From positions 214,014 through 278,013 of IMG/VR virus record IMGVR_UViG_3300028558_000016: 64,000 bases of DNA. The stretch is one strand, 5' to 3'. Origin of the DNA: a virus. Made by a program: the position numbers and the translations under genes. Under the pieces are notes generated by a model that saw only the letters and a list, made by a program, of their open reading frames with translations, searched no databases and was not told the origin of the DNA. Shown here in pieces: positions 56,381-58,160 of this stretch; within the stretch, counting starts at the first letter, position 1; the number at the start of each line of letters is the position of its first letter.

Positions 56381-57162
56381 AGAAGATAAAAACATATAAC
56401 AATTTTCTATTAGAAAAAAAGATGGAAGCCTTTGTTGAGATTGCTAAACGCAACAACATGACAGAGGACTGCATGCATCTCGTTGTTTGGTGGGGACTAA
56501 CCGGATATTTATATTACCACGGATTGCATGATAAGAATCCACCGATCACTAAAGAAGGAAAGAGAATGCTTAAAGTAATTTTTGATTCAGTGGTGAACGG
56601 AACTTATTCCGATTACATGAACCAAAGAATAACAGCAGAAGACGAGGATAACGATCCAATAGTTATGGAAGAAAACGTCTATAAGCAGATGGGAAAGAAT
56701 TACATTGATGACACGTTCAATGCCAACCTTGTTGAATTGAAACACCCAATTAAAGTTTTCAAGGATTATTCCAAAGACAGATTTGTGACTGGAAAAGATA
56801 CTGCATGGTATTCATTCTCTGTAATAAAGGGGAGAGACCAAAACGCTTACGGAGATGCTTATATCTGTTACGAGCTTCCAGCAGGATTCAAGTATCTCGA
56901 TACAAGAGGCCTTGCAGAAAAAGGAGAGATACTCATAGACGGCAAAGACTTAACAGATGACATGATAATAAGCAATTCAAGCGAGATGAAGATAGACCTT
57001 AAGAAAGGCGATGAGATATTAACTGGCAAGTGGCAGAACAAACATGATGAGGTTAAAAAGGTTGGAAAGAATGAATTAGGCCAACCAACTATAAATGGTA
57101 AACCAATGTTGAAGTTCAGAATAAAGAGATTGATGCCAAAGAAAAAGAAGTCTGAAGAATGA
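56377..57162 (+). CDS. CTS-motif protein (GTG start: VKKIKTYNNFLLEK)
   Basis: GTG 56377 overlaps upstream TGA (GTGA); motif KTYNNFLLE closely parallels T4 CTS MKTYQEFIAE. Confidence 0.5.
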   Translation: MKKIKTYNNFLLEKKMEAFVEIAKRNNMTEDCMHLVVWWGLTGYLYYHGLHDKNPPITKEGKRMLKVIFDSVVNGTYSDYMNQRITAEDEDNDPIVMEENVYKQMGKNYIDDTFNANLVELKHPIKVFKDYSKDRFVTGKDTAWYSFSVIKGRDQNAYGDAYICYELPAGFKYLDTRGLAEKGEILIDGKDLTDDMIISNSSEMKIDLKKGDEILTGKWQNKHDEVKKVGKNELGQPTINGKPMLKFRIKRLMPKKKKSEE

Positions 57163-58160
57163 GACGCATAAAGCTATATGAAGAATTTGTCGTTCAACTC
57201 AATGAGCTGAACGCAAGTCCTTATTTCTGGAGATGGGACACCAACAAGACTGCAAAGTTTGAATCGCCTGACGATACTTACGAAGTATTCTTCTTTAAAA
57301 CCAAAGACGACAACACATACATAGCACATTACGAATCAAAGAAATACGGAACAAACAAATCAGGACCTGGATCAACAGGAAATGCAATGAGAGTTCTTGC
57401 AACTGTAATGGACATCATAATAGCTTTCCTTGATCAGTTTCCTGAATACGACGTTGAATTCGTAGGAGACAAAGAAGAAGACGAGAAAGATGGTCCAACC
57501 AAGAGAGACAGAATATACAAGATGATGATGCAAGATCTTCCAGACAATTACAAATGGGAACTCGCATCAGACAAGAAAACAATTCACATAAGCAGGCAAC
57601 ACGTTTACGAAGACGTTAGCGGAATTGGTGGTGAAACATTCTACCATGGATCAACTGACAAGAATTTAGCTGGTCACAAGGGATTGCATGTAGGAACTCG
57701 TGAGGCAGCAAAGGAAGCTCTTGAAGCAAGGATAGGAGTTCCAGCTGAAGGAGAATGGGATGGAACAAGAGAATATGGAAAGACTCTATTAGCAGGACAA
57801 GACAGATTGAACAAGATAGAGAAGGAAGAAAAAAGATATGTGGCAACAGGTTTCAATTGTGGAAGCGATGTGCCAAAAGAAGATTACTATCCGACAGACA
57901 GAAAGGAAAAAGCAACATACAGCGATGAGTCTGTTGTTCCAATGAACTGCAAGCCAATAATATTTCCAGTTAAAATAGTCGGTCACATGACAAACACGCC
58001 TCAGCATCCATTGAGCGATTCCAAAGCGAATGGATTGATGAAAAGAAGCTTGACGGCAGGAAATGCTAAGAGCGGATTCTATTACAAGAACATCGGAGAG
58101 GACGAAGGGTCTATATCAGCTGTCGTTCCGGATAAGTCTTTCTTGAAACTTACCACTTAG
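57159..58160 (+). CDS. CTS-motif protein (MRRIKLYEEFVVQLNE) with PARP/diphtheria-toxin-like ADP-ribosyltransferase signature
   Basis: FYHGSTDKNLAGHKGLHVG parallels PARP HGSRTTNFAGILSQGLRIA; downstream RYVATGF (Tyr) and YSDESVV (cf. YNEYIVY catalytic Glu). Confidence 0.55.
   Translation: MRRIKLYEEFVVQLNELNASPYFWRWDTNKTAKFESPDDTYEVFFFKTKDDNTYIAHYESKKYGTNKSGPGSTGNAMRVLATVMDIIIAFLDQFPEYDVEFVGDKEEDEKDGPTKRDRIYKMMMQDLPDNYKWELASDKKTIHISRQHVYEDVSGIGGETFYHGSTDKNLAGHKGLHVGTREAAKEALEARIGVPAEGEWDGTREYGKTLLAGQDRLNKIEKEEKRYVATGFNCGSDVPKEDYYPTDRKEKATYSDESVVPMNCKPIIFPVKIVGHMTNTPQHPLSDSKANGLMKRSLTAGNAKSGFYYKNIGEDEGSISAVVPDKSFLKLTT

Follow-up and report, generated by a model that had tools for sequence, protein, structure and literature searches.

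The 333-amino-acid (aa) protein encoded by the plus-strand open reading frame (ORF) 57159..58160 of the window analyzed here (a stretch of 64,000 nucleotides (nt), positions 214,014 to 278,013 of the IMG/VR virus record IMGVR_UViG_3300028558_000016) would, with a probability that we put at roughly 55%, be an effector of a huge phage (~480 kb) that is targeted by its leader, trimmed by a protease and injected, and that carries an NAD+-using domain of ADP-ribosyltransferase (ART) fold. Three parts were delimited, all on the plus strand: (i) a leader or propeptide, MRRIKLYEEFVVQLNE (aa 1-16, 57159..57206), (ii) a DUF6934 domain of probable GNAT-like fold (aa ~20-147, 57216..57599), and (iii) an ART-fold domain (aa ~158-333, 57630..58157), the family of which is unannotated, restricted to viruses and related to His-variant ART-PolyVal domains. 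Homology searches also split the protein in two, separating the N-terminal half from the C-terminal 175 aa. In the proposed mechanism, the 16-residue leader would bring the precursor to the prohead, docking it onto the scaffolding core, and a Glu-specific prohead protease would then cut the leader off after L-N-E. The mature protein (DUF6934 and ART-fold domains) would be retained in the capsid and enter the cell, probably by injection with the phage DNA, and at the very start of infection it would use NAD+ to ADP-ribosylate a host macromolecule or would process NAD+ or ADP-ribose. Since the predicted active site is non-canonical, two options are kept, a non-protein acceptor or NAD+/ADP-ribose processing.

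The fold of the C-terminal domain was modeled with AlphaFold from 72 sequences, with a predicted local distance difference test (pLDDT) score of 91.6 and a predicted template modeling (pTM) score of 0.85. The model shows, in order, a strand (11-15, FYHGS), a second strand (26-29, LHVG), a helix (31-42), a long and mostly irregular insert, a strand (117-123), a helix (137-149) and three strands (156-160, 169-173 and 179-181). Structure comparison recognized the split beta-sheet core of ARTs, and ART-PolyVal was enriched among the BFVD matches of the domain. The insert (~74 aa, aa 193-266, 57735..57956), located between the helix that follows strand 2 and strand 3, is specific to the family and has no counterpart in ordinary ART-PolyVal domains; G193, G198, W200, G202, T209 and P266 are invariant in it and Y206 is found in 147 of 148 members. 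Searches of the C-terminal domain in Pfam, NCBIfam and PHROGs returned nothing significant, and sequence and profile searches of PDB gave no match. The sole PHROGs matches of the focal protein are weak, of unknown function and nearly all within its N-terminal half. A reading of the two His motifs as those of a 2H phosphoesterase was rejected, the motifs not being H-x-[ST]-x and the fold matches being ARTs.

The defining residues of ART-PolyVal domains are a strand-1 H, a strand-2 Y and a strand-5 D (PMC5512222). The Pfam model of this family (PF18760) does not detect the focal domain at E < 1 nor the stand-alone homologue P0011 at E < 0.1; in fusion proteins, the Pfam ART-PolyVal and GNAT matches fall on the neighboring domain and never on the conserved one. 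We compared the family with 38 ART-PolyVal segments taken from polyvalent proteins. The aromatic position of strand 2 is occupied by His in six of them, and these six, and no others, have the strand-5 signature D-G-x-x-Y-x-N. A seventh segment with a His pattern, GHLGT in P0185, is devoid of this signature and was judged spurious, its real strand 2 resembling GFYFT (6 and 1 versus 0 and 31; Fisher p = 2.5e-6, uncorrected for phylogeny). The focal family appears from its alignments to carry both features of these His-variant segments. Those of P0196, P0206 and P0227 read YHGT ... [ST]H[FL]GTxxAA ... GHDGxxYxNxxEDxGxxS, and the bridging segment of P0206 (601-775) is itself a Pfam ART-PolyVal match (E = 1.5e-10). 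When the focal family was compared with these three segments by hhalign, both His were aligned with an identical spacing of 13 residues (E = 6.3e-5, probability 64%), and the C-terminal block aligned AK[RS]GYYYxNxGEDxGSISAVVP with GHDGIxYxNxxEDxGSxS (E = 0.011). The global profile alignment to ART-PolyVal gave E = 5.2e-6 and a probability of 70%. Because of these alignments and of the shared signature, we place the focal family within the His-variant (H-H-D) ART-PolyVal subclade, as a probable derived branch. Its closest relatives would be found not in PARP or diphtheria toxin (DT) but among the His-variant ART-PolyVal domains, which are of the H-Y-D clade "Tox-ART-HYD2".

Besides the ART fold, the focal family shares with ART-PolyVal (i) strand-1 [FYW]-H-G-[ST], (ii) strand-2 G-x-aromatic/His-h-[GT] followed by a helix, (iii) an h-P-V-x-I...N-x-P strand, (iv) the C-terminal strands "G-h-h-Y ... 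h-h-h-F/V-x-P ... h-K/E", and (v) its occurrence in phage polyvalent proteins, in which MuF, portal, lysozyme and 2H domains accompany it. The His-variant subclade (SHFGT ... GHDGxxYxNxxEDxG) links the two. However, the focal family differs from ART-PolyVal by an invariant His instead of Tyr in strand 2, by K-[RSNK]-G instead of the G[YH]DG that holds the catalytic Asp, by its conserved insert and by a far higher conservation (50-70% identity across the family).

The C-terminal 175 aa gave 344 matches in a collection clustered at 90%, with 60-75% identity to the window protein. Most members of the family are stand-alone proteins (~190 aa, with a short N-terminal extension), and fusions to Pfam ART-PolyVal and GNAT domains also occur. 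When 1.84 billion cluster representatives were searched with a profile, 312 clusters were retrieved, 207 of them below 1e-30. Many of these clusters are giant polyvalent proteins (1,000-4,564 aa), in which the Pfam partners are SLT, phage lysozyme, ART-PolyVal, 2H/Acb1, LPD23, MuF, ADPrib_exo_Tox, Tpt1 and portal. Among 67 proteins, ART-PolyVal was found in 12, InPase in six and Nudix in six, along with M15 peptidase, PBECR5 and others; the Nudix domain directly adjoins the focal-type domain in five proteins. This family is viral: it is encoded by 92 IMG/VR loci (on contigs of up to 675 kb) versus just seven loci among 185,579 species genomes, all seven on contigs of metagenome-assembled genomes. 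A 100% identical protein (P0001) is present on several other metagenome contigs of up to 482 kb, and also at loci L001-L003; tblastn of the focal protein against 50,697 GenBank phage records gave no match. The N-terminal domain has a handful of close relatives, and searches with this domain alone gave just two homologues. Its DUF6934 match is below the Pfam cut-off in the focal protein and above it in P0121, which is 71% identical; in P0088, the same N-terminal domain is joined to a different, ART-PolyVal-like C-terminus. A literature search on DUF6934 returned nothing.

Residue conservation was counted over 148 diverse members of the family. The strand-1 His of WHG[ST] (H163, codon CAT, 57645..57647) and the strand-2 His of G-L-H-V-G-T (H177, codon CAT, 57687..57689) are both found in 148/148. 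The former aligns with the H of ART-PolyVal YHGT, and the latter sits at the ART "Tyr" position and aligns with SHFGT, THLGT and FHFGT of Pfam-positive ART-PolyVal segments. In the same two motifs, G164 (146), S/T165, G175 (138) and G179 (148) are conserved. The strand-5 region (aa 304-320, K-S-G-F-Y-Y-K-N-I-G-E-D-E-G-S-I-S, 58068..58118) was delimited by hhalign, MAFFT and conservation. In this region, S305, preceded by K304, occupies the position of the catalytic Asp of ART-PolyVal, where the family has R (n = 66), S (n = 37), N (n = 20) or K (n = 12). Seven polar residues are invariant (H163, H177, W200, T209, D287, Y309 and E314) and seven others are conserved at 97-99% (Y206, N279, N291, N311, D315, S318 and S320); E314 and D315 are located in the loop after strand 5. 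The predicted active site is not of the H-Y-E type but would consist of H163, H177 and Ser305 (K/R/S/N in the family) with the subclade-specific Y309-x-N311-x-x-E314-D315. The site being altered, the chemistry may therefore depart from that of classical protein ARTs.

The same replacements (Tyr by His in strand 2, and Ser, Arg, Asn or Lys aligned with the strand-5 Asp of ART-PolyVal) would also be found in a pseudo-enzyme whose transferase activity had been lost while the fold, and perhaps nucleotide binding, persisted. Such a binder could be, for example, a sponge for immune signals derived from NAD+ or ADP-ribose, a decoy, or an adaptor for neighboring enzymatic domains. Very often, the protein that contains the domain also has a canonical ART-PolyVal copy next to it, and the domain is highly conserved over its whole surface, as expected of a binding module. 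However, ~15 invariant polar residues resemble an active site, the adjacency of Nudix suggests that a product is turned over, and mono-ADP-ribosyltransferase activity is retained by PARPs devoid of the Glu. Furthermore, Tpt1 is an active ART-fold enzyme of H-H type according to the clade scheme in PMC9503650. Overall, we consider a pseudo-enzyme rather unlikely. A different and speculative proposal goes further than the effector proposed above: the domain could define a new catalytic class on the ART scaffold (H163-H177 with K304/S305 and Y309-N311-E314-D315), in which the exchange of an acidic for a basic residue in strand 5 would redirect ADP-ribose to a phosphate-bearing acceptor, or which would process NAD+/ADP-ribose with the adjacent Nudix, the domains being delivered as arrays of separately tagged genes. 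If this were true, candidate acceptors would be RNA or DNA termini and nucleotide immune signals, and these phages would carry an unbundled, modular virion cargo, encoded by separate genes with T4-type tags instead of one giant polypeptide.

The proposed delivery of the effector is suggested by its leader. The capsid-targeting sequence (CTS) of T4 is MKTYQEFIAE (PMC8442874); its residues 4 and 7 are needed for targeting and its residues 8 and 10 for processing (PMC9026906). Glu is the cleavage residue of all T4-type and giant-phage prohead proteases, which cut after it (PMC5694885). The leader of the focal protein, which the initial annotation had described as CTS-like, is real and recurs across the window. 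With Y7-x-x-F10 followed by L14-N15-E16, it fits the T4-type pattern, [YF]xx[FY][ILV]xE, and the prohead protease is predicted to cut after E16. The leader is a separate, low-confidence helix in the model of the N-terminal domain, and M1, I4-E8 and L14-L17 are invariant among five homologues of this domain. Moreover, [LIVMF]xE is found within the N-terminal extension of 102 of the 104 stand-alone homologues.

At least 11 leader-tagged ORFs were found in the window, all on the plus strand, with the consensus M-K-x-I-K-x-[FY]-x-x-[FY]-[ILV]-x-E. Six have the strict leader, M-K-x-I-K then [YF]xx[FY][ILV]xE (ORF starts 51422, 53134, 53609, 54742, 55931 and 56377), and looser versions are found at ORF starts 3612, 6348, 6536 and 7794 and in the focal ORF (57159, YEEFVVQLNE). 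Six consecutive tagged ORFs form a co-directional array (53134..58160; starts 53134, 53609, 54742, 55931, 56377 (GTG) and 57159), the last of which is the focal one. Leader codons vary between ORFs while the amino-acid pattern is kept. Therefore, the leader is conserved at the protein level, and a conserved DNA element (recombination or regulatory site) was rejected. Other phage contigs carry arrays of at least seven genes beginning with MKYLKLYENF or MKHLKTYKLFES, and the leader-tagged arrays of other phages include ART-PolyVal and Acb1-like genes. The tag density is 1.15 per 10 kb around stand-alone copies of the family versus 0.10 per 10 kb around polyvalent copies (~12-fold). The bodies of most tagged ORFs of the window are without family match in any library. 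Leader-like motifs (examples are KFEKQFEGFLSEAE, WFSNFLTEN, KKIKDFEDFINGEE, LRYDDFLNEQ and LNFNDFIFEAEE) also occur inside ORFs, at ~51755 (in 51422-51988), ~53750 (in 53609-54739), ~4634 and ~5839 and at the C-terminus of 6536-6958; these motifs may represent additional protease sites, traces of gene fusions or wrongly called starts.

An enzyme such as the one proposed could also act without being packaged. The N-terminal helix would then serve in assembly, localization or translation, and the protein would be cytoplasmic, like T4 ModA/ModB. The array lies beside replication and recombination genes, and no late-promoter signal was found in scans of the window: the T4 late promoter TATAAATA gave three matches versus 3.55 expected, none of them upstream of the array. 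However, the leader reproduces the determinants of the T4 CTS, i.e., an aromatic pair three residues apart then [ILV]-x-E (PMC9026906), and its conservation in protein but not in DNA, reported above, also argues for the packaged effector. Furthermore, entire arrays of unrelated effector domains bear this leader in several phages, the same domains are fused elsewhere to MuF and portal, and the copies devoid of leader are those embedded in polyvalent proteins. A non-packaged enzyme is thus unlikely.

Several observations weigh against the packaged, NAD+-using effector. No Pfam ART model matches the C-terminal domain and, as other residues take the place of both the Tyr (strand 2) and the Asp (strand 5) of ART-PolyVal, catalytic competence is putative. 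The leader of the focal protein, F-V-V-Q-L-N-E, is a looser variant than the strict F-[IL]-x-E of its neighbors. The array adjoins replication genes as well as tail-fiber genes, and an identity of 60-70% between distant phages is unusual for fast-evolving counter-defense effectors. It should also be emphasized that the window covers 64 kb of a genome of ~480 kb, and the genes of a prohead protease and of a scaffold would lie outside it.

The initial annotation had proposed a packaged ART of the PARP/DT type; the packaged ART-fold effector is supported, whereas the assignment to PARP and to the H-Y-E enzymes is not, strand 2 bearing an invariant His. The three strings on which this assignment was based are present, namely FYHGSTDKNLAGHKGLHVG (aa 161-179, nt 57639-57695), RYVATGF (aa 226-232) and YSDESVV (aa 254-260). 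The first had been matched residue for residue with the PARP string HGSRTTNFAGILSQGLRIA, but their lengths are 17 and 19, and a gap of two residues is required. The "N-L-A-G" element within it varies, N169 being replaced by D in 93 and A171 by R in 91 of the 148 members. In the model, GLHVG forms a beta-strand that leads into a helix, and it therefore corresponds to strand 2 of PARP ("GIYFAD") and not to the PARP helix "GLRIA". Conservation of the putative triad among homologues holds for H163 but not for the Tyr and the Glu: position 227 has Tyr in 59/148 members, and position 257 has Glu in 3/148 and Gly in 99, both residues (Y227 and E257) lying within the family-specific insert and not in a core strand. 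A BLASTP comparison with the PARP1 catalytic fragment gave a best E of 48, and no PARP or DT Pfam model matches. Profile and structure comparisons sustain an ART fold and a probable kinship with ART-PolyVal, not with PARP or DT. The focal domain shares with these H-Y-E enzymes the ART fold and the strand-1 H-G-S but is devoid of the strand-2 Tyr, of a conserved Glu, of the helix after HGS and of any detectable sequence similarity. Despite the HGS motif and its invariant His, a PARP/DT-type enzyme with the triad H163, Y227 and E257 is thus very improbable.

Among known systems, the proposed logic is that of T4 Alt, an ART-fold precursor that the prohead protease trims and that is injected along with the DNA. 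The focal domain belongs to another ART clade and has another architecture, and its activity is predicted, whereas the activity and targets of Alt are known. The R-S-E motifs (Arg, Ser-x-Ser, Glu-x-Glu) are not among the conserved positions of the family, and no ADPrib_exo_Tox or ART Pfam match was found in the focal protein. The earlier suggestion of an analogue of Alt built on another clade is consistent with the absence of R-S-E motifs, but this clade appears to be the His-variant ART-PolyVal and not H-Y-E. As in T4 internal proteins, a short N-terminal M-K tag with two aromatics three residues apart, then [ILV]-x-E, is found on a variable, genome-clustered set of otherwise unrelated small proteins, and cleavage after the Glu is expected. 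Compared with the T4 tag, the one described here has two extra residues (M-K-x-I-K-x-[FY]...). The genome is not that of a T-even phage but of a huge one, whose relatives are Lak and other phages of 460-735 kb, and the cargo, whose packaging and cleavage we infer, consists of enzymatic "polyvalent-protein" domains and not of small basic proteins. Tpt1/KptA (H-H-h clade) has, like the focal family, His in strands 1 and 2, no acidic residue in strand 5 and, close to this position, a basic residue that would be suited to a phosphate nucleophile in Tpt1-type chemistry. The focal domain differs from it by the lack of a sequence or profile match, of the helix between strands 1 and 2 and of the N-terminal RNA lobe.

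We know of no tested example of the head-packaged ARTs that comparative genomics has predicted besides T4 Alt. Phages packaging non-Alt ARTs of the Tox-ART-HYD2 clade were already proposed by Iyer, Burroughs and Aravind 2017 (PMC5512222), and the packaging of polyvalent-type ARTs by phages is an established prediction (PMC5512222, PMC9503650). What is new here is an unannotated, widespread and unusually conserved family, in which the triad is altered and a large insert is conserved, and its probable delivery by huge phages as part of arrays in which "unbundled polyvalent" domains are encoded separately, each with a capsid-targeting tag. This family, abundant in uncultivated and huge phages and exceptionally conserved, escapes detection by Pfam and NCBIfam, and the predicted active site departs from every characterized ART triad. 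Characterizing the enzyme would reveal how such a phage acts on the cell in the first seconds of infection. The short transferable leader (a tag of 12-16 residues, e.g., MKIKRFNNFINE or MRRIKLYEEFVVQLNE) is a direct experimental handle and could be used bioinformatically to catalogue the repertoire of injected proteins of huge phages.

The focal ORF begins with an ATG at 57159 that overlaps the TGA of the preceding ORF (ATGA) and ends with a TAG (58158-58160). TAG is recoded in some Lak-type huge phages. Read-through would add just five residues before a TAA, and homologues terminate at the same place as the focal protein, so the standard code fits. A hairpin and T-run located 3' of the stop codon are not better than in shuffled sequences (z = -1.07), and scans for sigma-70-like promoters and terminators remained at background level.

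Two ORFs upstream of the focal one, the leader-tagged ORF 54742-55950 (plus strand, MKRIKRFESYISE) ends with a Tpt1/KptA-like ART lobe (aa ~290-400, nt ~55609-55947). Its YFYHATAKSNLGNIMANGIRVGPEKVVYLSD aligns with Tpt1 (PDB 8tfz, E = 4e-4), with PHROG and NCBIfam "RNA 2'-phosphotransferase" matches (E about 2e-4) and a Tyr at the position of the strand-2 His of Tpt1. An HG-T...N-L-x-G-I...G-I helix resembling the PARP string quoted by the initial annotation is found in the product of this ORF and not in the focal protein. The immediately upstream ORF (56377-57162, plus strand, GTG start, leader VKKIKTYNNFLLE) encodes ...KDRFVTG...WYSFSVIKG...AEKGEILIDG..., which by eye loosely resembles the R / S-x-S / E-x-E layout of R-S-E ARTs. 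It has no sequence match in Pfam or PDB and only insignificant ones to phrog_3215 (E = 0.063, function unknown) and NCBIfam GroES (E = 0.062). The array also includes a leader-tagged, largely helical protein of 376 aa with two hydrophobic C-terminal segments (53609-54739, plus strand), which has a weak PHROG tape-measure match (E = 1e-4) and may be a membrane-active ejection protein.

The window is part of a huge-phage genome and encodes a family-B DNA polymerase split into two ORFs (23373-24836 and 41717-42931, plus strand, ~17 kb apart, matching positions 92-504 (N-terminal) and 491-839 (C-terminal) of phrog_262), UvsX and an AAA ATPase, and its UvsX is closest (35-39% identity) to those of uncultured 460-735 kb phages and Lak megaphages. 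Located 2 kb downstream of the focal gene, on the plus strand, are the genes of a collagen-like tail fiber (60078-62198, 706 aa, made almost entirely of G-x-S/G-x-T triplets around a central globular domain, with strong PHROG tail-fiber matches) and of a "virion structural protein" (62221-62988, phrog_10330). Just downstream of the array, a SiaC-family (PF09345) ORF lies on the opposite strand (58879-59265, minus strand), an arrangement that is kept in other contigs carrying the focal gene (loci L001 and L002).

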